Source of the DNA: Armatimonadota bacterium
GTDB taxonomy: Bacteria > Armatimonadota > Chthonomonadetes > Chthonomonadales > JAMCWF01
NCBI GenBank assembly: GCA_023481295.1
Contig: JAMCWF010000021.1
Coordinates: forward strand, 1 to 49,511
Length of the DNA stretch: 49,511 nucleotides
Reading direction: 5' to 3'
Made by a program: the position numbers and the translations under genes. Below, piece after piece: positions 4,082 through 32,311 of the stretch (the first letter of the stretch is position 1; each line of letters begins with the position of its first letter). Under the pieces are notes generated by a model. It worked only from the letters and a program-made list of their open reading frames with translations, did not search any database and had not been told where the DNA came from.

Positions 4082-4159
4082 CTTAACTTACCTCGCTTTC
4101 GCACTCCGCTCCGCAGAGCGATGCTTCGTATCACAGTGAATTTCAATCATATCAACCCA

Positions 4160-4202
4160 ATCATACGTTCCAATTGCAATCCAATGTATGACACGGGTCA
4201 TA
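4160..4202 (-). promoter_or_regulatory. candidate class-II Crp/Fnr-type promoter for ccmF: box TATGAC-N4-GTCATA plus -10 TATGAT
   Basis: The palindrome spans 4187-4202 (center 4194.5). The minus-strand hexamer TATGAT at 4165-4160 starts 29.5 nt from the center, which places the box at -41.5. The half-sites are identical to the box at 10792-10807. Confidence 0.5.
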
Positions 4203-4230
4203 TCTTTCATATCGCCTCATCTGTAAACCA

Positions 4231-6696
4231 TCAAGGCGAGGTTTTGCTGTGGCACATCGAGCAGAATTTCTGCCGATCATGGCACTTAAAACAAAAGCTG
4301 TTAGCCTTAAAGGAGGCCACCTTGGCGTGTGTCATCGACCAGTCGGCCGGGTGCGGCATCGGCGTCTGGTGGCACCGATCGCAACTGTTTTGGCCATGAC
4401 AGATGGCGCATACCTTTTCCTGTCCTTTCGCTGCGGTTGGATGGGTTTTCGGCCAATTCGCATCGTGCGATGCGGGCTTATGAGTTTGGTGGCAGGCCAT
4501 GCACTCGGAAGGTCGGTGGCAGCGCTTACAGAGTGACGGGCTTTGCAGCGCAATCGGCTCATGCCCCGACTGCATCCAACCGGCCGGATGCGGCATGGCG
4601 ATCCCATGGCAATTCACGCAAAAGTTCTGGACATGGCAGTTGGCGCAGACCGGCGATTGCATTGCAGCGGCCGAATGGGGACTTTGGGCCGTTTTCACCG
4701 GGCCGATCGGCGGCAACACCTTTCGGTTTAGCCAATCCGCCGGGTGCGGCATGTTGGTTCGATGGCAAGTCTGGCAAAAGGATGGTTTATGACAGGTGCT
4801 GCACCGTAAAGTTCCGCTCAATGCGAGCTTTCCGTGCCGCTTCATAAAATCGGGCGCCCGATGTGAGACAGGCCGCGCACCCTGATGACATTCGACACAA
4901 AAATCGGGGGTATGACACACGGTACACTTGTGAGTCGCCGTCAGTTTGCCGTGTATTTGCAAAAAATTCGCTTGCTGATGCGACGGCGGCCGTGCCCCAT
5001 GGTGACAGGTTCGGCAGAAGGTAGGTGTGTGGCAACGATAACATGTGGCCTTGTTTTTGATGGCGGCATTTCGATGCATCCTCAACCAATAGGGGCCATG
5101 CAGAAGCTTGCGATGGCACTGATCGCACTGTTGCCGAGAGTGGCAGACCAGGCAAAACTTGGGGTTGACGGCGGAAGCCCCGGCATGGAATCGCAACCAG
5201 TGATGGAGATGGGAATTGGGTTTGCGGTTGCGGTGACAGGCTTGGCAGAACCGGGGCTGATGGCATTCGGCGCAGGATTGGGGGTCTTTCATCACCTCAA
5301 ACCGATGATTGAGCATAAACCCTTCCTCCAGGTGTGATTGCGGCTCCGGCGGCCCGATCTGCGGCGTGGATGGCATGGTAGAGGTTGGGCGGATGCTTTG
5401 AATGAATGACACCATCGCCACGATCTCATGCTGATTCAACTGAGAGGGCGGCATGATCGAACGCGGGTTGAATCGGGTTGGGTTGAGCAGAACCTCCTCG
5501 ATCGTTTTTTTTGTGAGCTTGCCGCCGGTCGCCAAATCCGGCCCGGCGGTACCGCCACCGCCGTTTATCCCATGGCAGGCCTGGCAGTGCAAATCGAGAA
5601 AGAGCTTTTGACCTTCCTGCTGCAGTGGGGTTAACTTGGGTGCGCTTTCAATCGTTGGAAGCGATCTCAGCGAAAGTGCCGTCACCGCCACGAAGACGCT
5701 ACCGGCGAGGAAGATGGAAATGGGGCGTCGAGCCAGCTTTCGTTCCGGGTTGTGATCTAAATAGGGCACCAGGATGAAAGCCAGCAGGGTGATACCCGGA
5801 ATAACCATGCCACCGATGAACTCCCACTTGCCGGTGAAAAGGTGGGCCAGCTCAAAGAGGTAGAGGAAATACCAGTCGGTGTGAGCCGGATATGTGAGGT
5901 TGGGATTCGCGGGAGGCGTGAGGTGAAATCCCAAAATCAGCGTCGCCAGCATCAGTATCACAAAGAGCACCGCGCAGCAGATCATGATCTTCACCGTATG
6001 ATCCGGGTGAAACAGGAGCGGCTTTTCGACGTTCTGCTCATCATCCACCTGGCGCCACGGCGGCGTGATACCCTTCACCCTCACCTGAAAAACATGAAAG
6101 ACAAGCAAGATCACAAGTATGGTCGGCAAGAAAAAGACGTGAATCGCGTAAAACCGGGTCAAGGTCAGCGTGCCCACCGTAGGCTCGCCCAGGATGGCCG
6201 CCTTCAGCCAGTGACCCACAATCGGAAGCGAGCCGGCCAGGCTCATGCGGATGGTGGTGGCCCAATAGCCGTTTTGGTCCCAGGGCAGCAGCGAGCCGGT
6301 TATGGTGAAGGCCATCGTGATGGTTAGCAGCAGGATTCCAATCACCCAAACGATCTGGCGCGGCTTTTTGTAGGCTCCCCAGAGGAAAACCCGTAAAATG
6401 TGAACCCCGACCAAGAAGGCGATGGCATCGGTGGTGTAGTGATGAAGACTCAAGGCCACCCTTCCCCAATAGACGCTGCGGATAAATTGGATGCTGTCGT
6501 AGGCATGGTCAGGAGTCGGGGCATAGTAGAGTGCGAGAAAGATGCCGGTGACGAACTGGATCACGAGCAAAAATAGGATCACCGCCCCGATCGTCTGCGG
6601 CCAGCTTATACCGGACGGCAGCGGATACACCAGAAATCGTTCGATATCAGAGACCAGTCCGGTCTGATCATCAATCCAGCGAAGGATCTTCTTCAC
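4231..6696 (-). CDS. fusion protein: cytochrome b6-like + subunit IV-like + monoheme cytochrome c + 18-heme tandem-repeat cytochrome c
   Basis: 821 aa. The N-terminus has four conserved b-heme His in helices (SLHHY, GVHILR, YAIHVF, LVFHVF), LPWDQNGYW and a Qo-like TDWYF. CQACH with a downstream IMPP Met follows at residues 371-375, then 18 further CXXCH at residues 475-816. The GTG start lies 4 nt after the Rieske stop. Confidence 0.9.
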   Translation of the reverse strand: MKKILRWIDDQTGLVSDIERFLVYPLPSGISWPQTIGAVILFLLVIQFVTGIFLALYYAPTPDHAYDSIQFIRSVYWGRVALSLHHYTTDAIAFLVGVHILRVFLWGAYKKPRQIVWVIGILLLTITMAFTITGSLLPWDQNGYWATTIRMSLAGSLPIVGHWLKAAILGEPTVGTLTLTRFYAIHVFFLPTILVILLVFHVFQVRVKGITPPWRQVDDEQNVEKPLLFHPDHTVKIMICCAVLFVILMLATLILGFHLTPPANPNLTYPAHTDWYFLYLFELAHLFTGKWEFIGGMVIPGITLLAFILVPYLDHNPERKLARRPISIFLAGSVFVAVTALSLRSLPTIESAPKLTPLQQEGQKLFLDLHCQACHGINGGGGTAGPDLATGGKLTKKTIEEVLLNPTRFNPRSIMPPSQLNQHEIVAMVSFIQSIRPTSTMPSTPQIGPPEPQSHLEEGFMLNHRFEVMKDPQSCAECHQPRFCQACHRNRKPNSHLHHWLRFHAGASAVNPKFCLVCHSRQQCDQCHRKLLHGPYWLRMHRNAAIKNKATCYRCHTPTFCRTCHHGARPPSHQQANFLQIHGKLTATHKCTVCHTPDFCVECHQGARPVSHRAPDFMKRHGKLALSGTLRCSTCHKPSFCQTCHRTNMPHPADWLNRKVLPPIGPVKTAQSPHSAAAMQSPVCANCHVQNFCVNCHGIAMPHPAGWMQSGHEPIALQSPSLCKRCHRPSECMACHQTHKPASHDANWPKTHPTAAKGQEKVCAICHGQNSCDRCHQTPMPHPADWSMTHAKVASFKANSFCFKCHDRQKFCSMCHSKTSP
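4249..5274 (-). repeat. in-frame tandem array of nine diheme modules (about 37-52 aa each) inside the cytochrome b fusion gene
   Basis: The pattern CxxCH-x3/4-CxxCH-x3/5-(P)H-x3/5-(W/F)-x3-H recurs nine times, starting at residues 475, 515, 552, 591, 632, 684, 723, 763 and 802. Confidence 0.85.
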
Positions 6697-6700
6697 CCCT

Positions 6701-7195
6701 CTAGGCTCCTTTTATCTTGATCAGAATTCGGCCGCCGACTACCTTATAAGGAAATCGGTCCAATGGGCGCGGCGGCGGTCCCGCTACCACCTGACCCTTG
6801 ATGTTGTACATCCCGTTGTGGCAGGGACAGTAAAACACCTTTTTGTCGGGCTCCCAACGCACCGCACAACCGGCGTGAGTACAGACATTGGAAAACACGG
6901 TGAACGATTGAAGATTTTCGGCCACCACATAGACGGTTCCGCGAACGAGTTGATCCAGGTAGCCGTCCTGATGGTTGTAACGGTAGGTAAACGCGGTGGG
7001 AACGCCGAGCACCACATCGGTCAGCAGGCCGATATCCAGCCAGGTCTCCTTACGCCGTTTGAACGCGGGGAATAGGCTGAGCGCGACCATTGGGGCCGAA
7101 AGCAGGCCGACCAGTAAAAAACCAAATAGACCCACCAAATAGGAGAGGAATCGCCGCCTATTCGTTTTCCGATGGTTTGAATTCGGGTGTTTCAT
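6701..7195 (-). CDS. Rieske [2Fe-2S] protein with twin-arginine signal
   Basis: CTHAGCAV and CPCHNGMY cluster-binding boxes, and an NRRRFLSYL TAT motif. I place the start at the ATG at 7195 (GGAGG 7 nt upstream) rather than the ORF-track start at 7276, which lies inside a repeat element. Confidence 0.85.
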   Translation of the reverse strand: MKHPNSNHRKTNRRRFLSYLVGLFGFLLVGLLSAPMVALSLFPAFKRRKETWLDIGLLTDVVLGVPTAFTYRYNHQDGYLDQLVRGTVYVVAENLQSFTVFSNVCTHAGCAVRWEPDKKVFYCPCHNGMYNIKGQVVAGPPPRPLDRFPYKVVGGRILIKIKGA

Positions 7196-7237
7196 CCTAC
7201 ACCTCCTTAAACTCGAACCCACGCCGCTCGTATAGGT

Positions 7238-7384
7238 GGTTGCTGAAAAATACTGCAACACCCACCGGGTCGTCATTCCGTGGCCGCAAAGCGGAACCCG
7301 GAATCCAAGACATTGACATCGGACTGGATTCTCGCTTTCGCGTGAAAATCGTAGCGGCGGACTCCCGCCGGTTTTTCAATAACC
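7238..7384 (+). repeat. MITE-like modular palindromic repeat, copy B
   Basis: Termini are GGTTGCTGAAAAATAC (7238-7253) and the inverted GTTTTTCAATAACC (7371-7384). Internal hairpin modules are GTCGTCATTCCGTGGCCGCAAAGCGGAACCCGGAATCCAAG and a degenerate CTGGATTCTCGCTTTCGCGTGAAAATCG. Confidence 0.7.
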
Positions 7385-7404
7385 TCACAAGCATGATCGT
7401 GTTC

Positions 7405-9495
7405 CTAGTCCCTCATTGGCTCGGCTTCATGAATATCCGTTCGCGTTAGCGGTGGCCGCTGCTTCATATGCTCCGCATACTCCAGTGGATGTTCTTCCTG
7501 CATCTGATGGAGTGATATTTTTCCGGTAATCCAGACTTGGCTCATCGGGAAGACGGAAGGATTGAAATGCACCCAATAGAGATGCCACGTAATGATCGCG
7601 ATAAAGGCTAGTAGCGCTTCAAAGCCGTGCATGACCAGCGCCATTTGCCATGCCCATAACGGGAGCCAGTGCAGGGCGGTGCTCATGAACCAGAGAATGG
7701 CGCCGGTCATCACCATCACGATCGTCCCCCAAGTTAGGGAGAGATACTCGAATTTCTCCGCGTAGCCGAACCGGCCGAATCGAGGGCGATCGGGGACCAA
7801 GCCAAAGTAGTATCGAAACTGATGGATGAAATCGTAAAGATCCTTACGATTTGGCATCAACATCATAACATCTCTCCGGGCTGACTTTGAAACGGCAAGG
7901 TAGATGAGATGGTAGATCGCGGCCGTAACCAGTAAGACCGCTCCGGCCCGGTGAAGCCATGCACGAAGCTCGAAACCGCCCGGAAATGAGAGCAGAAAGC
8001 GTGCCCAGTCCGTTTGTGAGTACTGCAGCAAGAATCCGCTCGCCATCAGGGTGCCCACGCTGATCAACAGGATGACGTGCTGAATTCTAACCTGCAATGG
8101 CATTCGCTCAACGTAAGTATTGGCCGGTGAGCTTTCATCGTCGTCCGCTCCCGATCGTGCCGCAGCGTGGTCCGTATCGATGGAATGTCCCGCCGGCGCG
8201 GAGGCGCCCATCCTTTTGCGCTTGGATTCGCGACGACGAGCCCAGAGATCCAGCCCAATCAACCCGAAGAAAAGGAGCGTCATAGACCAGATCACGACTC
8301 GGTAAAAGAGGGTCATCAGGTAAACGCCCAGGTTGCTCGCCGGAGTAACCTCCATATGTACCTCGCCCCGGGCGAAGTTAGCGCCGGCGTGTTTATGACA
8401 GCGGCCGCAGGTAGTCGGTATGTTCTTCGGATTGATGGATGAGCGGGGATCCGAGGCGGGCAGAATTTCGTGAGCGCGGTGACAGGTTGCGCAATTGGCA
8501 ACCGTCACGATCCCGTAGGTCAAAGCCGTCCCATGGTAGGAGCTTCGGAAGGTCGAAAGCCGATCGGTCGGCAGCCCGAAGCGCAGGTCAATCGCTTTGT
8601 TGGCGTGGCAGCGACCGCAGGTGTTGGGGATATTGGTCGGATATACGGAGGAAGTGCGGTCGGTGGGCGCCCGGATGGTATGCTCCCCATGACAGTCGGT
8701 GCACACCGGAGCGGCCTTCACTCCCTTTAAGAACGCCTGACCATGCACCCCGGCCAAGTAGTGCGTGAGCTTATCCGGGTGGCAGCGGCCGCAGGTTCGC
8801 GGTATATTATTTCGGGCAACCGATGAGCTGGACACGCCGGCCGGTTGAATATCGTGGGCACGGTGACAATCGGTGCATACGGCGGCGCGGTTCATTCCCT
8901 GTCCCAACAGCAACTGGCCATGCACGCTTTTTTCATACTCTAGTAAAACATGTCCCTTCGGAATGCGAAATCGGTCAACCAGTCGCGGGTTGTTGTGGCA
9001 GTGAGCGCAGGTAAAGGGAATGTTTTGCCGGTTAACCTTCGAACGTGGGTCCGAAGCCGGCAAAATTTCATGCCGGCCATGGCAGGTAGCGCAGGTAGGA
9101 GCCAAGGTGGTGTGCTCCGCAACCGCAATCTGATGGTGGATGCTCAATTTAAAGCGATGAGCGATGTCGGCAAACCGAGCGGCGAGTCCGCTGTTTTTAA
9201 GGTGACAATTAACACAATTCACCGGTTGGGCGGTGGCAGGGTGAGGCAGGCGATTGGCGCTGAAATCACGGTGGCAATCGGTGCACTTTAAATTGCGATG
9301 AACCGATTGGCGGTAGCGTGCCGGATCTATGTAACCGCTTACGATCGTTCGCGAATGACAGCTCAAGCAGACGCGGTTGGTAGAGGGGCTGGTTTCACCT
9401 CTTGCCGGCAATTCCGACAGCATCACCATTAAAAGAATTGGTGCATGCACCCACCACGCTAACCGCGTACGGTGCGTGGTTATCATCGTTTTCAC
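7405..9495 (-). CDS. CbcL-like membrane cytochrome: periplasmic 11-CXXCH multiheme domain fused to a FdnI/HydC-type b cytochrome
   Basis: 696 aa with a signal peptide and 11 CXXCH, including four repeats of CxxCHxxHxI...NIPxTCxxCH. A TM helix and a charged linker follow, then a 4-helix domain with conserved His (RIQHVI, WLHRAG, IYHLIY, VMHGFE, TWHLYWVH). Confidence 0.8.
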   Translation of the reverse strand: MKTMITTHRTRLAWWVHAPILLMVMLSELPARGETSPSTNRVCLSCHSRTIVSGYIDPARYRQSVHRNLKCTDCHRDFSANRLPHPATAQPVNCVNCHLKNSGLAARFADIAHRFKLSIHHQIAVAEHTTLAPTCATCHGRHEILPASDPRSKVNRQNIPFTCAHCHNNPRLVDRFRIPKGHVLLEYEKSVHGQLLLGQGMNRAAVCTDCHRAHDIQPAGVSSSSVARNNIPRTCGRCHPDKLTHYLAGVHGQAFLKGVKAAPVCTDCHGEHTIRAPTDRTSSVYPTNIPNTCGRCHANKAIDLRFGLPTDRLSTFRSSYHGTALTYGIVTVANCATCHRAHEILPASDPRSSINPKNIPTTCGRCHKHAGANFARGEVHMEVTPASNLGVYLMTLFYRVVIWSMTLLFFGLIGLDLWARRRESKRKRMGASAPAGHSIDTDHAAARSGADDDESSPANTYVERMPLQVRIQHVILLISVGTLMASGFLLQYSQTDWARFLLSFPGGFELRAWLHRAGAVLLVTAAIYHLIYLAVSKSARRDVMMLMPNRKDLYDFIHQFRYYFGLVPDRPRFGRFGYAEKFEYLSLTWGTIVMVMTGAILWFMSTALHWLPLWAWQMALVMHGFEALLAFIAIITWHLYWVHFNPSVFPMSQVWITGKISLHQMQEEHPLEYAEHMKQRPPLTRTDIHEAEPMRD

Positions 9496-9677
9496 TCACT
9501 CAATCTCTTCAATAACCGGCTTGCAAATCCGATGGGGCGGCTGGTAAACGATCATCCCACCTGGGTTCGGCCTTCAACCGCCCCACCATCCACCGGCTCT
9601 CGGTATTTATTTAGGTCAGCACCCATCGTTTTGGCTGCCGACTGATTTCAAGCCGCTGTCATCTCACGGTCGATCAG

Positions 9678-10673
9678 TTAAGTTGTCGGCTTAGTAAACA
9701 GATGGCGGCCTTGCGGCATATGGCAATCGGAGCACTTTGCATCGGCGGCGCCCTTGTGTTGTTGAATATGGGCGGCCGGGTCGGTAATTTGCGCTTTGTG
9801 GCAGGTCAAGCACAACTGGTTGGTCGGCTGCCGGAGCTGATCGGGTTGATTGGTATTTCCGTGCGGATCGTGGCAGGTAATACAGGTAATGCCCGCCGCG
9901 TAGTGCTTACTCTGGATGTAATCGTTGTACTGCTGGTTGCGCCCGGGGCCGGTTACCTGAGCCAGGGTGAAGGCGGCGGTCAAATCATCTCCCGGCCGGA
10001 ATGAGGCTGGAAACGGATGACCGTCTTTGTCCTTCCCCACCGAATGGCACTGGCCGCAGATCATATCCTGCCGCTGCGGAGGCAGATCCTTCGGCATCAG
10101 GATGGTTTGCTTAGCGATGTCCAGCTTTTGCGCGTCGGGGGCGGAAACCATCTTAGCCAGGTGATTGCTGCCGGGACCGTGACACATCTCGCAGCCGACC
10201 CCCATGTCCACCCAAGTGTCGTTTGACACATCAAATCCGGTCGTATGGCAACGCACGCACTGAGTCTTTGCATCCACTGGCTCCACCTTTATCCAAGACT
10301 TCGTTGCCACGTCCCACTCGGCCGGCAAAAGCTGGAAATTTGAATCCAGATAGGCTTGCTGCCGATGTCCCACGCCGAGAACGTAAGCCACTTTGTCTTT
10401 GGTAAATGGGGCGGAGCTGAAATCGGCCACGATTGCGCTGGCATTGGATGCCGTCTGCATGGCGGAGTAGTGAGCGGTTTGAACGTAGGAGGCGACGATG
10501 GTTTTTGAAATATCCATGGTGCGGTGGCACATCATACAAATCTTAGTGCCCTTGTAGGTGGCGGCCGTTTGCGTGCTGGAGGCGGCGATGCTAGCGCCCA
10601 GGGCAATCAGCGCCCCCATAATGATGGGGTACTTCACCCCGTTACCGAACTGTTTGATTGTGTTCAATTTCAC
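9678..10673 (-). CDS. secreted heptaheme c-type cytochrome (c554-like CxxCHGPGSxH motif)
   Basis: Seven CXXCH (CMMCH, CVRCH, CEMCH, CGQCH, CITCH, CLTCH, CSDCH). I prefer the GTG at 10673, which follows GGAGGA and yields a signal peptide (VKLNTIKQFGNGVKYPIIMGALIALGASIAA). The ORF-track start at 10745 is the alternative. Confidence 0.75.
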   Translation of the reverse strand: MKLNTIKQFGNGVKYPIIMGALIALGASIAASSTQTAATYKGTKICMMCHRTMDISKTIVASYVQTAHYSAMQTASNASAIVADFSSAPFTKDKVAYVLGVGHRQQAYLDSNFQLLPAEWDVATKSWIKVEPVDAKTQCVRCHTTGFDVSNDTWVDMGVGCEMCHGPGSNHLAKMVSAPDAQKLDIAKQTILMPKDLPPQRQDMICGQCHSVGKDKDGHPFPASFRPGDDLTAAFTLAQVTGPGRNQQYNDYIQSKHYAAGITCITCHDPHGNTNQPDQLRQPTNQLCLTCHKAQITDPAAHIQQHKGAADAKCSDCHMPQGRHLFTKPTT

Positions 10674-10781
10674 AATTCCTCCACTAAATTGGATTGCATC
10701 AGTCGGTGGTGGTCTTAAAACACGGTAACGATCGGTTTGATGCACTTCAATCTTCGTTGATCTAGCATATCGCAGGAGCGC

Positions 10782-10817
10782 CCTTCGATTGTATGACGGT
10801 TGTCATACAATCGAAGG
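10782..10817. promoter_or_regulatory. perfect 16+16 bp palindrome with core TATGAC-N4-GTCATA; candidate Crp/Fnr-type operator
   Basis: The sequence is CCTTCGATTGTATGAC-GGTT-GTCATACAATCGAAGG. It overlaps the regulator stop codon (10803-10805). The minus-strand hexamer TATGCT at 10769-10764 starts 30.5 nt from the center. No U-tract follows on either strand. Confidence 0.5.
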
Positions 10818-11597
10818 AAGCGGGCAAAGCGGCTGATCTGAATCACAGCTTTCGTCAACGAATGATTTCAGCGCGTTAAGATGCATGATGACGATCTTAT
10901 TGCACCGGTGGCAGTATGAGTCAATGCCGCAAAGGCGGCAGCCTTTTGGGACCAGTTTCCCGTGGATGGTGCAGATGTACCCTGCCTTCGTCAGGCGGCT
11001 CAACACCCGAATGGTCGTTTCCACCGTGGTGCCGGCCATGTCGGCGATCTCGTGGCGGGTGAGTGGAGTGGTAATCAAGGCGCGGTCGTTGCTTTGAACG
11101 CCGGTTATTTTCGCCAAGTAGATCAACAGGTGTGCGATGCGCTTGTCCACCGCTTCGGTGACTAAAAATCGGAGCATTTCCTGGGTATAGCAGAGACGGC
11201 GTGACACCGCTGCAATGAGACGCTTGGCAAAGAGAGGAGATTGATCGATGGTCTTAACCACCTGGCTATGAGGAATGAAAAGTGCGGTCATCGGCGTGAT
11301 TGCGACCACCGAGGAGGTGTAAATCCGGTCCACCAAAAAGAGGCAAACTTCGCCGAAAATATCGCCTGGTTTCAGGATCGCGACCGTTATATCGCGTCCG
11401 AGCGCTGAGTGCTTGACCACCTTGGCGCGACCCCGAAGGATAACGCCGATTGCGAAGGCTTCGCTCCCTTCGCTGAAAACCTCTACACCCGGCTTGTATT
11501 TGCGCTCGGTAACTTGTGATTCAAGCTGCGCTATCTCCTCAATCGGCATATCGGCCAGGATCGGAACGCTCTGCAAAAAAGCCAACCGGTCCGACAT
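10803..11597 (-). CDS. Crp/Fnr-family transcriptional regulator with C-terminal CxxC-x5-CxxC insertion
   Basis: 264 aa with a cNMP-binding-like beta-roll and an HTH (TRHEIADMAGTTVETTIRVLSRL). The extra motif C220-RL-C223-GIDSY-C229-HR-C232 is encoded at 10902-10940. Confidence 0.85.
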   Translation of the reverse strand: MSDRLAFLQSVPILADMPIEEIAQLESQVTERKYKPGVEVFSEGSEAFAIGVILRGRAKVVKHSALGRDITVAILKPGDIFGEVCLFLVDRIYTSSVVAITPMTALFIPHSQVVKTIDQSPLFAKRLIAAVSRRLCYTQEMLRFLVTEAVDKRIAHLLIYLAKITGVQSNDRALITTPLTRHEIADMAGTTVETTIRVLSRLTKAGYICTIHGKLVPKGCRLCGIDSYCHRCNKIVIMHLNALKSFVDESCDSDQPLCPLPSIV

Positions 11598-11738
11598 ACT
11601 ATCACCTTCTTCACACTATTCATCAGTTGATTCATTGCGAGAATGCCGGTTTTCACATTAATCCACGTTGTCCGTTAGCCGTTATGGTCAGAAATCCAGC
11701 CGCTGCGCTTATTGCGGGAGGGATTTCATTTTTTCAAT

Positions 11739-11754
11739 TGTGAATTATAACACA
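11739..11754. promoter_or_regulatory. CRP-like near-palindrome TGTGA-N6-ACACA; its spacer carries a minus-strand TATAAT
   Basis: TGTGAATTATAACACA matches TGTGA-N6-TCACA at 9 of 10 positions. The reverse complement of 11744-11749 is TATAAT, a possible -10 for the regulator gene. Confidence 0.35.
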
Positions 11755-11759
11755 GATCG

Positions 11760-11771
11760 TGATTTAAATCA
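11760..11771. promoter_or_regulatory. FNR-like box TGAT-N4-ATCA (perfect 12-bp palindrome TGATTTAAATCA)
   Basis: Read directly from the sequence. It lies in the AT-rich spacer upstream of the Crp/Fnr gene. Confidence 0.35.
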
Positions 11772-11801
11772 TATCATTTGCCATCTTCAACTTAAACTAT
11801 A

Positions 11802-11813
11802 TGATTTATATCA
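11802..11813. promoter_or_regulatory. FNR-like box TGAT-N4-ATCA (TGATTTATATCA)
   Basis: Second copy, centered 42 bp from the first (four helical turns). Confidence 0.35.
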
Positions 11814-11913
11814 TACTTTACCGACCAATGCAAGTGGATGACCTCTTTCAAATCACCGAAAAGGCGAAAAACGCTCAATTCATTGGATTTGCGATACTGG
11901 CACTCCATGAGGT

Positions 11914-12110
11914 GGTTGTTGAAAAATACGGTAACCACCTTCGGGCCGTCATTGCGGGGCCGCAAACATGTCCCCGCGTAGGCGGGGAGCGGCACCCGGA
12001 AGTCGGCGCATCAGCATCCCGGCCTGCCGGTAGGGAGGGGACTGGATTCCCGCTTTAGCGGGAATGACGAGGGGGGACGGGAATGACGAAGTGGCATGCT
12101 CCAGCAACTT
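11914..12110 (+). repeat. MITE-like modular palindromic repeat, copy C
   Basis: Starts with GGTTGTTGAAAAATACGGTAAC. The left hairpin module carries a nested extra hairpin (GTCCCCGC-GTAG-GCGGGGA). The right module is CTGGATTCCCGCTTTAGCGGGAATGACG (12042-12069), followed by a partial duplicate CGGGAATGACG. Confidence 0.7.
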
Positions 12111-12220
12111 TCGCTATTTCCATTCCATAGAGGAAAACCCGGCCTTCATCGCTGAATATCACAGCAAAAGTTTGAGGTATCAGCCTCTGCAATACGATCT
12201 CGAATTGGAGGTGCGGTAAG

Positions 12221-12808
12221 ATGGCAGCCATCATTTTAGCAGGAGGAGTGAGCAGCCGGATGGGGCAGGACAAGGCGATGCTGATGTTTGATGGCCAGAC
12301 CCTGCTGGAGCGAGCGGTGAGAATTGCGGCCGATGTCAGCCGGCCGGTATGGATAGTGGCCAATCGAGCCGGTCATTACCATGTGCATGGAGCGACCGTC
12401 ATCGGCGATGGGTACCCTGGCGAAGGGCCGTTGGGCGGGCTGATCACCGGCTTGAAGGCGGCCGGCCCTGGAGTTCACATCGCAATGGCCTGCGACACGC
12501 CGCTGATGGAGCCGAAGGTATTTTCGCTGCTCTTGTCGAAAATAGGTGAGCACGATGCCGCCCTCTTTAAGCTGGGGGATGGATTGCAGCCGCTTGGAGC
12601 GGCGTATCGCGACAAAGCCCTGCCGTCACTGATCGCCTCCTTCGAGGCTGGAAATAGGGCGCTCCATATCGCCGTCAAATCACTGGATGCGGTGATTTTA
12701 GGCGACGATGAGCTGCTTCTGGTGGATCCGGCCGTGCTGAACTTCACCAATATCAACGATCTCGATGATTACGCCGATCTTTTAGGCGAGCCGAATGAAG
12801 AGCTGTAG
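12221..12808 (+). CDS. mobA: molybdenum cofactor guanylyltransferase
   Basis: N-terminal ILAGGVSSRMGQDKAML signature, 195 aa, GGAGG SD upstream. Confidence 0.8.
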   Translation: MAAIILAGGVSSRMGQDKAMLMFDGQTLLERAVRIAADVSRPVWIVANRAGHYHVHGATVIGDGYPGEGPLGGLITGLKAAGPGVHIAMACDTPLMEPKVFSLLLSKIGEHDAALFKLGDGLQPLGAAYRDKALPSLIASFEAGNRALHIAVKSLDAVILGDDELLLVDPAVLNFTNINDLDDYADLLGEPNEEL

Positions 12809-12841
12809 GTCTAATAATTTCCGTATGGGGGTTGCCGGACG

Positions 12842-15445
12842 ATGGGTAGAAAGGACATTATGATGGGAATCGTGTCAATCGCGATGATGGTTGCACTGCT
12901 GGCTTTGGCGGCGGCTGCGGAAGCGGATACCGATTCGATGTTTCCCTTCGTCATTCCTTGGAGCGATGCCAGCAAAACGGTTACCAACGTTTCGTTCCTA
13001 AATGACGGGCCGGCCGGCTCGCACGGCTATATCGTGGTGAAGAACGGCCACTTCGTTGAAAGCGATACCGGCAAGCGGATTCGGTTTTTGGGTGTAAACC
13101 TGGTTGCCGGCAGTGCATTTCCCAATCACGCCGATGCCCGAATCGTGGCGAGAAGGCTGGCAAAGTACGGTGTGAACCTGGTTCGGCTGCACCATATGGA
13201 TAACTGCTGGAACAACCCAAAGGGCACCATTTGGAATCTCAACTACTCGGATCATCGCCATATCAATCCCCAGCAGCTCGATCGCCTCGACTACCTGATC
13301 TATCAACTGAAGCGCCACGGCATCTATGTGAATATCAACCTGCACGTTTCGCGGCAATTCTCACCGGCAGACGGATTTCCGGCCAGCGTCAACGACATCC
13401 CCTTTTCATTCGATAAGCGGGTGGATTACTTTGATCCCAGAATGATCGAGTTGCAAAAGGAGTACGCCCACCAGCTTTTGACTCATGTCAATCCCTACAC
13501 CCATACCGCCTATACCGATGAGCCGGCGGTGCTCAACGTGGAGCTGACCAACGAGGATTCGCTGGTCGGCGATCCATGGTCCTCGTTGGGGCATGGACTG
13601 AAGGAACTCCCGCAGCCGTTTTTGGGCGAGTTGCAGCAGCTCTGGAATCGGTGGTTGGCACATCGATATGGCACCACCGCTAAATTACAAACAGCCTGGT
13701 TGAAAAATGTCGCCCCGCCCGGTCCTGATCTATTGAAAAGCGTCACCGATCTACCAAGCTGGGCGCTCGAACAGCACCGCAACACTAAAGCTAACCTCAG
13801 CAATGAGGGCGATGCGCTCAGGGTCGATGTCGTTCAAACGGACAGCACCGACTGGCACCTTCAGCTTCACCAAGCCGAGTTGAACATACAAGACGGCTAC
13901 ACCTACACGGTTCGCTTCCGGGCGCGCGCAAACCCCGCCCGCGAGATGCCGGTCTATACTTCACTCGATGAACCGGACTGGCATCACATCGGGCTGGAGG
14001 TAACCGCCCACCTGACGCCTGAATGGAAGCAGTACACCTATTTCTTTACCGCCCGCCATACCGTGCCCGATCATTCGCGACTCGTCTTCGTGCTGGGCAA
14101 TCAGACCGGTGAGGTGGAATTGGCTCAAGTCAGGCTGAGCGCCGGCGTGGAGGGCGGTGATCTGCAGCCCGGCCAGTCCTGGACGAATGGTACCATCCCG
14201 ATCCCGGACGGCGGGTTGCCGAAGCAGTGGGCCGATTGGATCGCTTTCCTTACTCATATCGAGCGGGCATATAACCATCAGATGCGCGATTACTTGAAAA
14301 ACGATCTCCACCTGCATGCCAGCATCATCTGCAGCCAAATTTCCTATGGTGGGCTGTCCGGGCCTTATCGCGAAGATGCAAGTGAGTTCGCCGACGACCA
14401 TGCCTATTGGGAGCATCCCAGCTTTCCGCACCGACCATGGGATCCGGTGGACTGGTTCATCGGTAATACCTCCATGGTTCCAGCCATTGGCCATAGCGAT
14501 ACCCTCACCGCAATGGCGGAGTATCGGATCGCCGGCAAGCCCTTTACCGTAAGCGAGTACAACCATCCTGCCCCCAACGACTATCAGTCGGAGTGCGTCC
14601 CGCTCTATGCCTCCTTTGCCGCCTTTCAAGATTGGGATGCCATCTATCTGTTTGACTACGGGAGCTATGGCGCCAATGCCGCCAACGACCAGATACAGAG
14701 CTATTTTGGAGTGGGATCCAATCCGGCAAAATGGGCCTTTATGCCGGCCGCCGCCATGATTTTTCGTGATGACGAGATCACACCGGCGGGCGAGTCGGTT
14801 ACGGTCTCCATTCCAGCCGAGAGCTATGAAGCGGAGCTGGCACAGTTTCCGACCGCCTACGATCTCTGGGACCACTATGGGATAAGCCGTAAAACGACCC
14901 TGTCGCGAAGAATGGGCATCCAGATGGCCAGCGACACCGGGATTCGAAAATCCGGCAAGTCTGGAAATTCGATGCTTGAATGCGTGAACAGCGACCCGGC
15001 CACCGCATTCTACACGGCCGACGCACCGGCGGCGAAGGTGGTGGTGGGCTTTATCGGCGGTCGAACGGTAACGGTGGGGAGGGTGCGATTTGAATTCGGC
15101 GACACTCCGCACCACTTTGCCGCCCTGATCTTGAACTCAATGGACCGAAAACCGCTATCCGAAAGCAGCCGAATTTTACTGACGGCGGCCGATCGGGTGG
15201 AAAACACCGGTATGGTCTGGAACGCAGCTCATAATAGCGTCAATAACAACTGGGGAACCGCGCCCTCCCTCGCCGATGGCGTGCCGGTGGCGATCACCAT
15301 GCCGGTGAGCGGTCTACGAAAGGTCTACGCATTGACGGATACCGGGGCGTTAGGCCAGGAAGTTCCAAGCACCTATCAGAACGGCGACATCACGTTTACG
15401 GCCGGCCAGAGCTACCGGACGCTGTGGTATGCGATCGTGAAGTAG
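12842..15445 (+). CDS. secreted GH5-like (TIM-barrel) glycoside hydrolase with an inserted CBM-like beta-sandwich
   Basis: 867 aa with a signal peptide. Putative acid/base in VELTNEDS and nucleophile in FTVSEYNHP. The central segment (ALRVDVVQTDSTDWHLQL...VELAQVRLS) resembles CBM4/9-type modules. Substrate is unknown. Confidence 0.6.
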   Translation: MGRKDIMMGIVSIAMMVALLALAAAAEADTDSMFPFVIPWSDASKTVTNVSFLNDGPAGSHGYIVVKNGHFVESDTGKRIRFLGVNLVAGSAFPNHADARIVARRLAKYGVNLVRLHHMDNCWNNPKGTIWNLNYSDHRHINPQQLDRLDYLIYQLKRHGIYVNINLHVSRQFSPADGFPASVNDIPFSFDKRVDYFDPRMIELQKEYAHQLLTHVNPYTHTAYTDEPAVLNVELTNEDSLVGDPWSSLGHGLKELPQPFLGELQQLWNRWLAHRYGTTAKLQTAWLKNVAPPGPDLLKSVTDLPSWALEQHRNTKANLSNEGDALRVDVVQTDSTDWHLQLHQAELNIQDGYTYTVRFRARANPAREMPVYTSLDEPDWHHIGLEVTAHLTPEWKQYTYFFTARHTVPDHSRLVFVLGNQTGEVELAQVRLSAGVEGGDLQPGQSWTNGTIPIPDGGLPKQWADWIAFLTHIERAYNHQMRDYLKNDLHLHASIICSQISYGGLSGPYREDASEFADDHAYWEHPSFPHRPWDPVDWFIGNTSMVPAIGHSDTLTAMAEYRIAGKPFTVSEYNHPAPNDYQSECVPLYASFAAFQDWDAIYLFDYGSYGANAANDQIQSYFGVGSNPAKWAFMPAAAMIFRDDEITPAGESVTVSIPAESYEAELAQFPTAYDLWDHYGISRKTTLSRRMGIQMASDTGIRKSGKSGNSMLECVNSDPATAFYTADAPAAKVVVGFIGGRTVTVGRVRFEFGDTPHHFAALILNSMDRKPLSESSRILLTAADRVENTGMVWNAAHNSVNNNWGTAPSLADGVPVAITMPVSGLRKVYALTDTGALGQEVPSTYQNGDITFTAGQSYRTLWYAIVK

Positions 15446-15498
15446 GCTCGACCCTCGAGAGAACCATCACCGATTAAGAATAGTCTGAGTTATCGGCA

Positions 15499-15605
15499 GA
15501 GTATTTGAAAAATCCTCCCCGATGTAGGGGCACGTTGCAACGTCCCCCGAATCTGGATTTCCACTTCGCTGGGAATGACGATTAGCATCCTTCGCTGATA
15601 CTATT
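15499..15605 (+). repeat. MITE-like modular repeat, copy G (short, degenerate)
   Basis: GTATTTGAAAAATC terminus, hairpin GGGGCACGTTGCAACGTCCCC, and a degenerate right module CTGGATTTCCACTTCGCTGGGAATGACG (15553-15580). Confidence 0.55.
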
Positions 15606-15733
15606 AACCCGACAATAGCATGGCGTATCGGCGTGGCTTGCCGGCGGAGTAACCGGGCGGTTAATATTTAATGCAGCCTGAGCAAACTGCGACATCGTTT
15701 GGATTATCCGTTGTGACCCAAAACGTTCTTTAC

Positions 15734-15839
15734 CGCTCGCTGACGCTCACGGCTCGGATGGGCGTTTCGAGACCGGCGGAGTAAAACGCTTCCGAAACGA
15801 TAAAGACGCAACCGTCGGAGCTACGAGCGTCAGCGAGCG
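15734..15839. repeat. long inverted repeat: perfect 15-bp arms separated by 76 nt
   Basis: CGCTCGCTGACGCTC (15734-15748) pairs with GAGCGTCAGCGAGCG (15825-15839). Imperfect pairing continues inward. Confidence 0.6.
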
Positions 15840-15953
15840 ATTATTGATCTGACGCGCGATCATTGTTTAAAGATTACGGTACAACATTGCCGGAGTACTA
15901 GCATACCCACATAATACAGCGAAAAGCGGGAAATAATAGGCTCTTGATCGGTC

Positions 15954-16847
15954 TTATCTCAATTCCGAGATCGAATTCGATGCCGAGCCCGATCCCAATC
16001 GAACCCGCCGGCTGCATCGCCAGCGCCGCTGATAGTACTCCTCCGATAAGGAGCTTATGTGGACCCCCCAATTCCCGGAGGAGTGGATGAAGTGGCCGCT
16101 GCCGATTGCCATTCCGACGTGGGTGATGGTGCGCCTGCGGTAATCAGGCTGGTCCGGCCCGAAAAAGACGAGGTCACCCGCCTGCAGATCGGCCGATGGA
16201 ACGCTGGCCGCTTCCACCCATTCGGATTGCAGATAGGCGTCCCGCGGCAGGAGAATACCATGCTGGCGGTAGATGCGCTGGGTAAATCCGGAACAATCAA
16301 TCCCGAAGGTAGAGACCCCACCCCATAGATAGGGGACTCCCAGCAGCCGCATTCCCGTCTCAATCACGCGCCGGACATTGGGGCGGCGGGTTTCGGGTAT
16401 CGGTGCGAGATCCTTTCGCTTTACTCGCCCGGTCCGGCCGTCAGGCAGCGTCACCATGGCTATTCGATCCATTTCAAACTCCACCATCACCCTCGAGCCC
16501 ATTGCCAGGATCGTTATAGGCTGATCGTGATGTTCGATCTCCCACAGCGTGGCATAGGCGTTCCGGATTTGGGCAATAGTAGGATAACCGATATAGTGAT
16601 TTGGAAGGCGGGGCGGCGCCTCTTCCTCCGCCAGGCTGCTTGCCCAAATCCAGCCGGTGTAACCGTCTTCGGTGTGAGACTCCAAAAATCCGCTCCGTTC
16701 GGATTGCGCCTCAACCCACTCACCCATTAGCGCTTGGCTGATCCTTTCCGAGCGAATATCGGGTTCCACCCGCATATCGGTGACCGCGCGGATGACGATT
16801 CTTCGAGATGGCATAACGTCCCTCTTTACAATTCGGACCTGGCACAT
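15954..16847 (-). CDS. NlpC/P60 (C40) cell-wall peptidase with N-terminal SH3b-like region
   Basis: Catalytic Cys context DCSGFTQRIYRQHGILLPRDAYLQ and the downstream His segment ITHVGMAIG. Confidence 0.75.
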   Translation of the reverse strand: MCQVRIVKRDVMPSRRIVIRAVTDMRVEPDIRSERISQALMGEWVEAQSERSGFLESHTEDGYTGWIWASSLAEEEAPPRLPNHYIGYPTIAQIRNAYATLWEIEHHDQPITILAMGSRVMVEFEMDRIAMVTLPDGRTGRVKRKDLAPIPETRRPNVRRVIETGMRLLGVPYLWGGVSTFGIDCSGFTQRIYRQHGILLPRDAYLQSEWVEAASVPSADLQAGDLVFFGPDQPDYRRRTITHVGMAIGSGHFIHSSGNWGVHISSLSEEYYQRRWRCSRRVRLGSGSASNSISELR

Positions 16848-17066
16848 TCAACTCAGCCAGGTTATCGGATATGGACTATATTTTATCGCAAGTACCAGCC
16901 ATGCCGGAGGGCAATCAGCCAAAATACAGGCCGTACCGATGAATTTCGTTTAATTGGTTGATGGAGCGCCAGCCGGGTTGTTACTTAAAATTGCTAGTGG
17001 GCGAGCAGCGGAGCTTGAAATTCTTGATCCGGCGCATCCGAATTATGCTATGGGATGGCTATGAGA

Positions 17067-17247
17067 GGTTGTTGAAAAAGTCACTGGAGTACGCCGCTTC
17101 GTCATTTTCGCCCCACCTCGTCATTCTCGCGAAAGCGGGAATCCAGTTCATTGCCCATCGGCAGCCAAATGTGCTGATTTTCTGGATTCCAGGTTTCGCT
17201 TTGCGACCCCGGAATGACGACCCAGTGATGTTACCGTATTTTTGAAC
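17067..17247 (-). repeat. MITE-like modular palindromic repeat, copy D (inverted relative to B, C and E)
   Basis: Terminus GGTTGTTGAAAAAG (17067-17080). CGTCATTCTCGCGAAAGCGGGAATCCAG (17119-17146) is the reverse complement of the right module, and CTGGATTCCAGGTTTCGCTTTGCGACCCCGGAATGACGACCC (17182-17223) is the reverse complement of the left module. The other terminus is GTTACCGTATTTTTGAAC (17230-17247). Confidence 0.7.
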
Positions 17248-17311
17248 ATGCTCTTAACGTGGATTCATTTCGATTGACGATGGCATCAAAAATCGGTTAT
17301 GCTCTTAGGTC

Positions 17312-24432: not shown

Positions 24433-24461
24433 TTGAATGACGTCGTCAGCCATGTTATAAT
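24433..24461 (+). promoter_or_regulatory. sigma70-type promoter for dnaA: TTGAAT-17 nt-TATAAT
   Basis: -35 TTGAAT at 24433-24438, a 17-nt spacer, and -10 TATAAT at 24456-24461, about 30 nt upstream of the dnaA ATG. Confidence 0.55.
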
Positions 24462-24491
24462 GGGCGATCGGTTGGGTTGTTGGAGGGCTGT

Positions 24492-25874
24492 ATGAGCGAA
24501 CAGCTTCGCATTGATGATGATGATTTTTCGATTGCTCTGCGTCGTACATGGGAGCGTGCGCTACAGCTTTTATCGGCCAAGGTCAGCATAGTTACCTACG
24601 AAAGTTATCTGCGTCCCATCCACCCAATCTCTTGGAACGGCACCGAAGTGGTTTTGGGTGCTCCCAGTCCATTTGCGCGTGAATGGATCGAAAAGCGGTA
24701 TAGCAACGGCATCCGTGCCGTTTTGGAATCGCTATTTGAGCAGACGATCAAGTTGCGTTTTGTGATCACCGAGGACCCCGACCCAGCGCCAAGCGTTGAG
24801 CGGCGGGTCCCTCGGCGGGCGGCGCGTGCTACCCCGGATGCTCCCTCGCTGCCGCTGAACGAGAAATTTACATTCGACCATTTCGTGGTGGGGGATTCCA
24901 ATCGTCTGGCTCAAGCCGGATCCATCGCCGTTTCAGTGGAACCAGGTAAAGCCTACAACCCGCTCTTTCTTTATGGGCCGCCTGGTGTCGGTAAGACACA
25001 CCTGCTCCACGCAATCGCCCACTCCTGTTTCGAGCACAAGCCCGACATCCGGGTTGCCTACGTATCGGGGGAGCATTTCACCCAACATTATCTGCTAGCC
25101 CTTCGTGAAAACCGGACGAATGAGCTTCGCCGGCGAATGCGCGGGGTTGATGTTTGGCTGGTAGACGATGTGCAGTTCATCGCTGGAAAAACATCCACCA
25201 AGGAGGAGTTTTTTCACACTTTTAATACGCTGCACCAGTCCGGTAAGCAGATCGTGATCTGCAGCGATCGCAGTCCCCGTGAATTGCGGGAGATGGACGA
25301 AAGGCTCCGCTCACGCTTTGAATGCGGGTTGATTGCCGACATCCAGATGCCGGAATTCGACACCCGACTTCGCATTTTAAAGCATCATTGCAAGGAAAAT
25401 CGTTACGACATCCCCAATGAGGTGCTCAATGAGCTGGCTTCTGCCATTCAATCAAATGTCCGTGCTCTCGAGGGCGCGCTCGTTAAACTGGTGACCTACG
25501 CCTCGGTGATGTCGAAACCGATCGATATCGAGCTGACGCAGCGAATCCTCTCCGAGTACCTAATCACTCGTCCGGCCAGCTCCGTCACCATCACTTGCGA
25601 TTTGGTAATCCAAAAGGTTTCCGAAAGCTTCGGCGTACCGCCCGATCATTTGCGGAGCGCCCGCCGAGACACCGATATCCTATTGGCCCGACAGGTCGCG
25701 ATCTATCTGTGCCGTGAATTCACCTCGTGCTCATTGAAAAGCATCGGGGTGGCGTTCGGTGGCCGTGACCACACCACGATCCTTCATTCCATCGAGCGAA
25801 TTGAGCAAAAGAGTACGTTGGATACTCAGCTCAGGCACCGAATCGATACATTACGCGACAAAATCAGGTGCTGA
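24492..25874 (+). CDS. dnaA: chromosomal replication initiator protein DnaA
   Basis: AAA+ Walker A GPPGVGKTHLL, box VII and a C-terminal DNA-binding domain (HTTILHSIERI). I chose the ATG at 24492, which follows GGAGGG, over the TTG at 24477. Confidence 0.9.
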   Translation: MSEQLRIDDDDFSIALRRTWERALQLLSAKVSIVTYESYLRPIHPISWNGTEVVLGAPSPFAREWIEKRYSNGIRAVLESLFEQTIKLRFVITEDPDPAPSVERRVPRRAARATPDAPSLPLNEKFTFDHFVVGDSNRLAQAGSIAVSVEPGKAYNPLFLYGPPGVGKTHLLHAIAHSCFEHKPDIRVAYVSGEHFTQHYLLALRENRTNELRRRMRGVDVWLVDDVQFIAGKTSTKEEFFHTFNTLHQSGKQIVICSDRSPRELREMDERLRSRFECGLIADIQMPEFDTRLRILKHHCKENRYDIPNEVLNELASAIQSNVRALEGALVKLVTYASVMSKPIDIELTQRILSEYLITRPASSVTITCDLVIQKVSESFGVPPDHLRSARRDTDILLARQVAIYLCREFTSCSLKSIGVAFGGRDHTTILHSIERIEQKSTLDTQLRHRIDTLRDKIRC

Positions 25875-28117: not shown

Positions 28118-28300
28118 GGATTGACAAATACGGTAATAGCCGCGGGTCGTCATTTCGGGGCCGCGAAGCGGAACCCGGAATCCAGAACCTCAGCACCCAT
28201 ACCGGTCGGTCGGCAGGGGACTGGATTCCCGCTTTCGCGGGAATGACGAAGTGTGGCGGGAATGGCGTAGCGGCGGCTTCCGGCGAGCTTTGCAACAACC
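28118..28300 (+). repeat. MITE-like modular palindromic repeat, copy E (best-preserved)
   Basis: Left terminus GATTGACAAATACGGTAATA. Left hairpin GGGTCGTCATTTCGGGGCCGCGAAGCGGAACCCGGAATCCAG (28144-28185). Right hairpin CTGGATTCCCGCTTTCGCGGGAATGACG (28221-28248) plus a partial duplicate. Right terminus TTTGCAACAACC (28289-28300). Confidence 0.7.
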
Positions 28301-31172: not shown

Positions 31173-31408
31173 CCTCTGCCTCCCGCCGTATGATACGACC
31201 CATCACGGGATTGTAAAGCACTATCGGCTACCTTCTGCTTGTCGCAGTTTTGATATCATCGAATAGATTTTCCACCTGTAATGTTCGATAGGTTTACCTA
31301 ATTTCCTGCAAAATGCACTGGGAATTGAACGAGTTCCAGGGGAGCAGGAATTCTGGGGGCATATCACGAAGTTAAAACCGACTACAAGTGTCGGCAGGAG
31401 GTTTAACC

Positions 31409-32169: not shown

Positions 32170-32311
32170 ATAGGATGGGGGTGATGCTCCCGTCACCAAA
32201 CAAGATTCCCGTTAAACTGAACTCATACGGTAGGAAACAGAGCGTTGGAATGGGGCGGAAATGAGGTAAACTACTATTCAATCGCATAAGAGATTCGCCT
32301 GACCATCTCGT

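Follow-up and report, generated by a model that had tools for sequence, protein, structure and literature searches.

A perfect 36-nt palindrome that runs across the stop codon of a regulator gene raises the question of whether it acts as DNA, by binding a protein, or as RNA, by forming a hairpin at the end of a transcript, and which part of it would be needed in either case. The palindrome is located on contig JAMCWF010000021.1 of an Armatimonadota bacterium (assembly GCA_023481295.1), a stretch of 49,511 bp that is referred to here as the window. The regulator belongs to the Crp/Fnr family, and its gene is followed by a cluster of genes for multihaem cytochromes. Comparison within the window, with a sister lineage, and across phyla suggests that the inner 16 bp are probably an operator through which the adjacent regulator activates the cytochrome operon, and that the outer arms probably arose as the product of a template switch. 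The features at the center of this question are as follows.

10782–10817, no strand: perfect 36-bp palindrome with 16-bp arms and a 4-nt loop
10792–10807, no strand: core box TATGAC-N4-GTCATA, putative operator centered at 10799.5, the conserved part of the palindrome
10803–11597, minus strand: gene for a Crp/Fnr-family regulator of 264 amino acids, with a cyclic nucleotide monophosphate (cNMP)-binding-like domain, a winged helix-turn-helix (wHTH), and a Cys-rich C-terminal region
9678–10673, minus strand: gene for a heptahaem c-type cytochrome of 331 amino acids, with a signal-peptide-like N-terminus and a GTG start; first predicted target

The palindrome at the regulator stop codon

On the plus strand the palindrome reads CCTTCGATTGTATGAC-GGTT-GTCATACAATCGAAGG, with 100% complementarity between the arms, and the sequence and coordinates given in the original prediction proved exact. 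The TGA stop codon of the regulator (10805–10803) and its last four codons (PSIV*) lie inside the arm at 10802–10817. This is the longest perfect inverted repeat of the whole window; in 200 first-order Markov shuffles, the longest arm found with a loop of 3–8 nt was 12 bp. A Logan assembly made independently from the same lineage (L015, SRR10244963) contains the identical palindrome, so it is not peculiar to one assembly.

Long perfect palindromes are typical of repetitive extragenic palindromic (REP) sequences and the window holds a dispersed repeat family, both of which would favor a REP-like copy or a copy of a miniature inverted-repeat transposable element (MITE). No further copy of the palindrome was found within the window, however, when up to three mismatches were allowed, one of the arms is conserved coding sequence, and the site is orthologous and collinear with that of the sister lineage described below, which argues against an insertion. 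With the second assembly and the shuffles also taken into account, a repeat copy, an assembly artefact, or a chance occurrence is given next to no credence.

The second-longest perfect inverted repeat of the window, ATCCTTCCCCCT-TCC-AGGGGGAAGGAT, has 12-bp arms (32145–32171) and is located about 107 nt downstream of an O-methyltransferase gene (31388–32038).

A recurring core box and the adjacent regulator

Within the palindrome lies the 5-N4-5 inverted repeat ATGAC-GGTT-GTCAT (10793–10806), which has a TGA-N6-TCA core and, with one further base pair on each side, forms the core box. Three related boxes are present in the same gene cluster.

4187–4202, no strand: second box, TATGAC-CCGT-GTCATA (minus-strand reading), centered at 4194.5, upstream of the CcmF/NrfE-like gene
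11800–11815, no strand: box A, TATGAT-ATAA-ATCATA (minus-strand reading), upstream of the regulator gene and 100% conserved in the sister lineage
11758–11773, no strand: box B, TATGAT-TTAA-ATCACG (minus-strand reading; ATCATG in the sister lineage), overlapping the −35 region of the regulator promoter

The second box lies between the gene for a cytochrome b fusion protein and a haem lyase gene, and the expectation for a second exact TATGAC-N4-GTCATA is 0.002. Exact matches to the degenerate form TATGAY-N4-RTCATA number three in the window against 0.006 expected, and none of 3000 shuffles gave two or more; all three are in non-coding DNA of the regulator/cytochrome cluster. Box B is a two-mismatch copy of this consensus, with a single mismatch in the 5-N4-5 form. 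This one consensus, which includes the core of the palindrome, replaced a candidate interpretation in which four FNR-like TGAT-N4-ATCA boxes were the real sites and the palindrome was unrelated to them. The TGAT-N4-ATCA palindrome TGATCTGAATCA (10834–10845) was also rejected, as it is located within the regulator open reading frame (ORF), does not fit ATGAY, and is poorly kept in the sister lineage (CGATTCGAATCA). Its distance from the main box is 40 bp in the upstream direction, which places it at about −82.5.

The sister lineage (contigs L001–L010, L014, and L021) has the same regulator–cytochrome junction, with 92% identity to the window for the regulator protein, 91% for the cytochrome protein, and about 87% for the DNA. 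On the coding strand, its sequence at the palindrome site is CCTTCGATCGTATGAC GGTT GTCATATTATTTCAGG, compared with CCTTCGATTGTATGAC AACC GTCATACAATCGAAGG in the window. What the two have in common at this site is TATGAC-N4-GTCATA alone; the spacer is inverted, and a TATGCT hexamer and its spacing from the box are kept. All three exact boxes are retained at orthologous positions with altered N4 spacers, and the single half-site change, at the ccmF box (TATGAC-CGGC-ATCATA in the sister lineage), falls at the degenerate position (GTCATA to ATCATA). Upstream of its haem lyase gene the sister lineage carries an inserted repeat element of 220 nt, past which the two sequences align again from about 10 nt ahead of the ccmF box. 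At the 3′ end of the regulator ORF, 81 nt (10821–10901) differ between the lineages at 25% of positions, compared with only 12.7% in the downstream intergenic region; the promoter region is therefore better conserved than the C-terminal tail of the regulator.

The same comparison bears on a role at the RNA level, in which the hairpin at the 3′ end of the regulator mRNA would be a terminator without a U-tract, a read-through insulator, or a block to 3′ exonucleases. As RNA the palindrome folds with −31.3 kcal/mol (z = −7.9), and its position is right where the regulator ORF ends, with a co-directional gene following. Against this, neither strand has a U-tract or T-run after the palindrome (the sequence goes on with GCGCTCCTGCGATATGC on the minus strand and with AAGCGGGCAAAG on the plus strand), and the conserved inner 6 + 6 bp recur at promoters that are not gene ends. 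The sister sequence has no such hairpin and adopts a different fold (−12.5 kcal/mol, z = −0.8) that is no better than those of shuffles, so a conserved RNA hairpin with a terminator or stabilizer role is unsupported. We consider an RNA-level role distinctly unlikely. The missing U-tract, together with a hairpin that is not kept where the orthologous gene ends, led us to reject an intrinsic terminator in particular, in agreement with the original description of the palindrome as a poor one; a terminator scan did not flag it either. Consensus terminator scans over 40 kb returned 23 matches against 20.0 in shuffles and 32 against 20.1, and they say little about termination in this organism.

The regulator ORF matches PF00027, PF13545, and PF00325, and its closest relatives of solved structure in the PDB are Mycobacterium tuberculosis CRP, GlxR, and NtcA. 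It falls below every NCBIfam equivalog cut-off, with 39 bits for the Fnr model against a cut-off of 228, and by these profile matches it is a generic Crp/Fnr protein. An FNR-type Cys cluster was looked for at the N-terminus, which begins MSDRLAFLQSVPIL and has no Cys. The recognition helix of the wHTH, GTTVETTIRVLS, is invariant in 16 retrieved homologues at 27–38% identity. Its V-E-T-T-I-R segment aligns with R-E-T-V-N-K of M. tuberculosis CRP, that is, with DNA-contacting positions, and the alignment pairs V192-E193-T-T-I196-R197 with R180-E181-...-G184-R185 of Escherichia coli CRP. These positions correspond to V208-E209-T-I-S212-R213 of E. coli FNR, in which Ser212 reads the T that distinguishes FNR boxes from CRP boxes. 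The Glu, the Arg, and the TGA core are kept as in FNR, with Ser212 replaced by Ile and the discriminating base changed from T to A (ATGAC versus TTGAT). In FNR, Glu209, Ser212, and Arg213 are the main contacts with the box (PMC4505428), and co-variation of helix and half-site has been documented for HcpR, DNR, and NnrR (PMC1274295). With Ser changed to Ile and T to A together, nature has in effect supplied a test case for the reading of the discriminating T by Ser212.

Whether this helix goes together with this box was examined by scanning for GTTVETTIR with one genome per species, which resulted in 79 further loci. The lineages represented include Methylomirabilota/Rokubacteria, Nitrospirota, Aquificota, Anaerolineae, Thermodesulfobacteriota, Verrucomicrobiia, Actinomycetota, and others. 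Within 3 kb of the regulator gene (467 kb in total), each of the 16 perfect palindromes of the form xTGAy-N4-y′TCAx′ was counted and compared with its shuffle mean; three of them are listed here.

ATGAC-N4-GTCAT: 33 observed, shuffle mean 0.22, 150-fold enrichment
ATGAT-N4-ATCAT: 8 observed, shuffle mean 0.40
TTGAT-N4-ATCAA (canonical FNR box): 1 observed, shuffle mean 0.57

At least one ATGAY-N4-RTCAT site is present in 43 of the 79 loci, with 50 sites in all. Just outside the half-sites, 78% of the sites have T/A, and there is no conservation beyond that base, which gives the family box as T-ATGAC-N4-GTCAT-A. A box is found within 150 nt past the regulator stop codon in 14 loci, and the overlap with the stop seen in the window recurs in Aquifex. 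One homologue with 38% identity comes from a genome of 68% GC in which a DUF2249/COX1-like operon is preceded by an exact TATGAT-CAAG-GTCATA. The original prediction had read the core as an FNR-type box with a shifted half-site and had tentatively tied the shift to ETTIR in place of the ETISR of FNR; recurrence in the window, conservation in the sister lineage, and the enrichment of the ATGAC box in the 79-species set, with the FNR box not enriched, all agree with it. The association of helix and box across species is correlative, and the contact of residue with base is our proposal from it. If it holds, the V-E-T-T-I-R to ATGAC link lets regulons be predicted from sequence in mainly uncultured lineages.

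Genes for DUF2249, DUF1858, or TusA-like proteins adjoin the box in 11 of 29 cases, and other box-adjacent genes encode NirK-like multicopper oxidases, COX1/NOR-like proteins, molybdopterin oxidoreductases, and ScdA. Subfamily targets in other phyla (NirK-like, NOR/COX1-like, DUF2249, DUF1858, and ScdA) point to nitrogen-oxide or redox sensing. The ETTIR-helix regulators apparently form a widespread, uncharacterized Crp/Fnr subfamily; ATGAC-N4-GTCAT was not found as a described transcription factor box in the searchable open-access literature, in which the nearest was the HcpR1 box, TTGACnnnnGTCAA.

In two Actinomycetota metagenome-assembled genomes, CTGAY-N4-GTCAT, one mismatch from the family box, follows an ETTIR-type regulator gene and lies upstream of a glutaredoxin gene (L016, 6263–6280; L019, 5711–5728). 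There, genes for a pyridine-nucleotide-disulfide oxidoreductase and a ferredoxin come before the regulator gene, an arrangement that points to a thiol/redox regulon in this branch.

Several Crp/Fnr paralogues are common in bacteria and the window covers 49.5 kb of the genome, so the box could be bound by a different paralogue encoded elsewhere, its adjacency to the regulator gene being a coincidence. The occurrence of the box beside ETTIR-helix genes in more than half of the species, its repeated position shortly after the regulator stop, and the boxes upstream of the regulator's own gene make this very unlikely.

After the HTH, the regulator contains an insertion of 20 amino acids, GCRLCGIDSYCHRCNKIVIM (C-x2-C-x5-C-x2-C), followed by a Cys-containing tail (residues ~213–264 for insertion and tail, 10803–10960). 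Both are absent from 13 of 14 homologues at 27–38% identity, one of which has a different C-terminal tail, and a similar insertion (GCRQCAVQLRCPRCRKIV) is present in a Planctomycetota homologue with 41% identity (L022, 3001–3714). The CxxC-x5-CxxC insertion may be a metal or Fe-S site. It resembles the C-terminal Cys cluster that binds [4Fe-4S] in Bacillus subtilis and Bacillus cereus Fnr in having extra Cys C-terminal to the HTH (PMC3520743). In Bacillus Fnr the motif is C-x2-C-x4-C, whereas here it lies within an insertion in the wing region; the resemblance is loose and no sequence relationship is claimed.

Promoter geometry and predicted mode of action

The distance between a box and the −10-like hexamer of its predicted target provides a further line of evidence. 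Three −10 or −10-like elements lie near boxes in the window.

10764–10769, minus strand: −10-like hexamer TATGCT, starting 30.5 nt from the box center and conserved in the sister lineage, with a predicted transcription start site (TSS) near 10757
4160–4165, minus strand: −10-like hexamer TATGAT, starting 29.5 nt from the center of the second box (4194.5) and conserved in the sister lineage
11744–11749, minus strand: −10 TATAAT of the regulator promoter, within the conserved TGTGTTATAATTCACA

Of 32 box–target pairs, to which the window and the sister lineage together contribute four, 16 have a TAnnnT hexamer that begins 29.5 nt (11 pairs) or 30.5 nt (5 pairs) from the box center; every other offset occurs in at most one case. 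With the hexamer placed at −12 to −7 of the predicted TSS, the box would therefore be centered at −41.5 or −42.5. This spacing, in the absence of a recognizable −35 element, is by its layout the arrangement of a class II activator site; −41.5 is the class II position of the FNR model promoter FF-41.5 (PMC4505428). Both figures in the original prediction stood up to recalculation: the 30.5 nt from the center at 10799.5 to TATGCT, a spacing that recurs across the family, and the leader of 84 nt from the predicted TSS to the GTG start codon at 10673, which is preceded by GGAGG at 10682–10678. The regulator and cytochrome genes, both on the minus strand, are separated by 129 nt. For ccmF, an alternative sigma-70-type promoter, TTGGAA-16-TATGAT (4173–4146), was set aside because the sister lineage does not keep its −10, and TATGAT at 4165–4160 was preferred.

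We propose that a dimer of the adjacent Crp/Fnr regulator would bind TATGAC-N4-GTCATA at 10792–10807, with the Glu and Arg of V-E-T-T-I-R reading the shared TGA-N6-TCA core. Centered ~41.5–42.5 bp upstream of the TSS, the bound dimer would take the place of a −35 element and recruit RNA polymerase, and would in this way activate the cluster that encodes the heptahaem cytochrome, the 11-haem/b561 protein, the Rieske protein, and the cytochrome b/19-haem protein. The second box would likewise serve to activate the CcmF/NrfE-like haem lyase gene, and the two boxes upstream of the regulator gene would provide autoregulation.

If the regulator repressed at the palindrome site instead, as a roadblock to read-through or by promoter occlusion, the box would still be a real operator of the subfamily. 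The overlap of the box with the regulator stop codon, co-directional with its target, is in line with this, as is box B, whose overlap with the regulator's own −35 region makes repression probable at some sites. Repressor sites are not expected to keep a fixed distance of the kind seen at half of the family promoters, where no −35 is recognizable; repression at the palindrome site is judged unlikely. A conserved TGTGTTATAAT lies upstream of the regulator gene. With the TSS predicted from TATAAT, box B is at about −28.5 and box A at about −70.5, which suggests autoregulation via both. The conserved sequence around the regulator TATAAT, TGTGTTATAATTCACA (11736–11754), is in itself a CRP-like TGTGn-N6-nCACA palindrome, 100% conserved in the sister lineage, and could be the site of a second Crp-type factor.

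Several points weigh against activation by the adjacent regulator. Binding by this protein, the TSS, and activation rather than repression are all read from sequence, and the same helix could occur in a Crp/Fnr paralogue encoded outside the window. Part of the definition of the box came from the window that also served for counting its recurrence. The 79-species test does not share this circularity, but its loci are phylogenetically non-independent of each other. Beyond the sister lineage, the closest homologue to have the Cys insertion is that of the Planctomycetota contig L022, and there no box was found within 3 kb at up to two mismatches. For the outer arms, the polarity of the change is inferred from parsimony and the family consensus, with only two lineages having the junction and no outgroup, and a hairpin of −31 kcal/mol at the 3′ end of the regulator gene could have gained an RNA-level effect in the window lineage.

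Among known systems, the closest in layout is the class II site of E. coli FNR (PMC4505428). In both, the 5-N4-5 repeat is built around TGA-N6-TCA, a wHTH regulator that acts as a dimer carries the Glu and Arg of FNR positions 209 and 213, the box lies ~41.5–42.5 bp upstream of the (here predicted) start in place of a −35 element, and the (here predicted) targets are anaerobic-type respiratory and cytochrome-maturation genes. Unlike FNR, the present regulator has Ile for Ser212, a C-terminal CxxC-x5-CxxC insertion, and no N-terminal Cys cluster, and the half-site is ATGAC rather than TTGAT, with C preferred at position 5; all copies are ATGAC or ATGAT, and the canonical FNR box is not enriched near ETTIR regulators. 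The site would work like an FNR class II site, yet it is no canonical FNR box, nor is the regulator a canonical FNR.

HcpR1, whose box is wyTTGACnnnnGTCAArw (Rodionov et al. 2005, PMC1274295), shares with the ETTIR subfamily an identical inner TGAC-N4-GTCA, a box derived from comparative genomics, a regulator that adjoins its target and has no FNR-type Cys motif, and regulons with nitrogen-oxide-related and cytochrome genes. It differs in the outer base (yTTGAC, compared with A in T-ATGAC), in having Ser or Pro at the CRP R180 position, where the ETTIR subfamily has Val (with Ile at FNR S212), and in its targets, which are hcp and frdX rather than genes for DUF2249, DUF1858, NirK-like, NOR-like, and multihaem cytochrome proteins. 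The regulatory logic proposed here is itself textbook; the half-site variant is apparently new, and the cross-phylum link of helix and box and the template-switch origin of the arms are useful rather than surprising.

The remaining genes of the predicted regulon are all on the minus strand.

7405–9495, minus strand: protein of 696 amino acids, an 11-haem cytochrome c with a cytochrome b561-like membrane domain
6701–7276, minus strand: Rieske [2Fe-2S] protein
4231–6696, minus strand: protein of 821 amino acids, a cytochrome b with a c-type domain containing 19 CxxCH motifs
1790–4081, minus strand: CcmF/NrfE-family haem lyase, second predicted target

Homologues of the heptahaem cytochrome are annotated mostly in Armatimonadota. 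The membrane domain of the 7405–9495 fusion also resembles that of the formate dehydrogenase gamma subunit, and the cytochrome b of 4231–6696 is b6/ExtP-like. Two such unusual fusions together with a Rieske protein suggest a large, dedicated complex for electron transfer from quinol to multihaem cytochromes.

Origin of the outer arms

The box accounts for the inner 16 bp, and the 10 bp at the outer end of each arm call for a separate explanation. The stretch of 17 nt that starts with the loop and ends at position 13 of the 3′ arm shows 9 differences between the two lineages, compared with the background of 12.7% in the rest of the intergenic region (p = 8e-5). All four loop bases are inverted, and when the window 5′ arm is joined to the sister loop GGTT and reverse-complemented, the result matches AACC plus the 3′ arm of the window exactly. 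Homogenization of arms with inversion of the spacer is a recognized footprint of template switching, a mechanism reported to lengthen inverted repeats, including those at transcription factor sites (PMC8794818, PMC8604942, PMC13100816). The pattern fits a single template-switch mutation in the window lineage as the source of the outer 10 bp, which would lie outside the operator. In such an event, the 6-bp half-sites of the box would have primed the switch, and the coding 5′ arm and loop would have been copied as their reverse complement over the old loop and 3′ flank.

The reverse order, in which an ancestral perfect palindrome decayed in the sister lineage, is less favored, as it needs five substitutions in ten bases as well as inversion of the loop, and it conflicts with the family, in which perfect arms are mostly 5–7 bp and reach 10 bp at most (50 sites); the arms are 6 bp in the sister lineage and 16 bp in the window. 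No third lineage with the regulator–cytochrome junction was found. Cytochrome homologues at 56–61% identity (L011–L013) were tried as outgroups and dismissed, their contexts being different (an Rrf2 regulator upstream, or a molybdopterin operon) and offering no comparable junction, and P0138, a candidate third regulator lineage, is a one-residue variant within the sister lineage.

In treating the perfect 36-nt palindrome as the functional unit, the original prediction went too far: conservation stops at the inner 16 bp, the outer arms belong to a single lineage, and the family consensus has nothing beyond T-ATGAC-N4-GTCAT-A. The perfection of the 36 bp is most likely a neutral by-product, and its most striking features, perfection and length, would then be its least functional part, which is a warning for similar sites. 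As in other template-switch (quasipalindrome-correcting) mutations, the changes are confined to one arm and the loop, the arms are perfected, the 4-nt loop is inverted, and the seed is a short inverted repeat that is the site of a dimeric factor. This case is unlike those described in that it concerns a bacterial operator overlapping a stop codon and its polarity is argued without an outgroup. It would be a clean bacterial example of a template switch that extended a transcription factor site to a long perfect palindrome.

A more far-reaching reading would make the extension adaptive, as a combined DNA and RNA element made up of an operator and an insulating hairpin that uncouples the regulator transcript from the operon. 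The regulator would here belong to an undescribed subfamily of many phyla that controls nitrogen-oxide/redox respiration through a box of its own, and, in this probable Armatimonadota lineage and in a Planctomycetota relative, would have gained a metal- or redox-sensing Cys insertion and been wired to the multihaem/Rieske–cytochrome b complex. Taken as a whole, we regard this as rather unlikely.

Other differences between the two lineages involve rearrangement. The window and the sister lineage differ by an inversion (11815–12131; L002, 4692–4860), such that the cytochrome/regulator block (4075–11815) is flipped relative to a block of nucleoside triphosphate (NTP) transferase, carbohydrate-binding module (CBM) protein, and NlpC/P60 genes (12131–16900); homology with the sister lineage stops exactly at the outer edge of box A (11815). 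Dispersed intergenic repeats of ~115–240 nt occur at 7232–7305, 11906–11966, 17065–17248, and 28121–28232, and in L001 at 12631–12870. They carry tandem GGGAATGACGA(A/G)GGG units, which are also present at 12059–12094, and the family looks MITE-like; the element inserted shortly before the ccmF box of the sister lineage is one of its copies. A dnaA gene (24477–25874) is associated with a strong TTGAAT-17-TATAAT promoter match at 24433–24461, and the chromosomal replication origin may be near it; its position bears on which strand was leading at the template switch.

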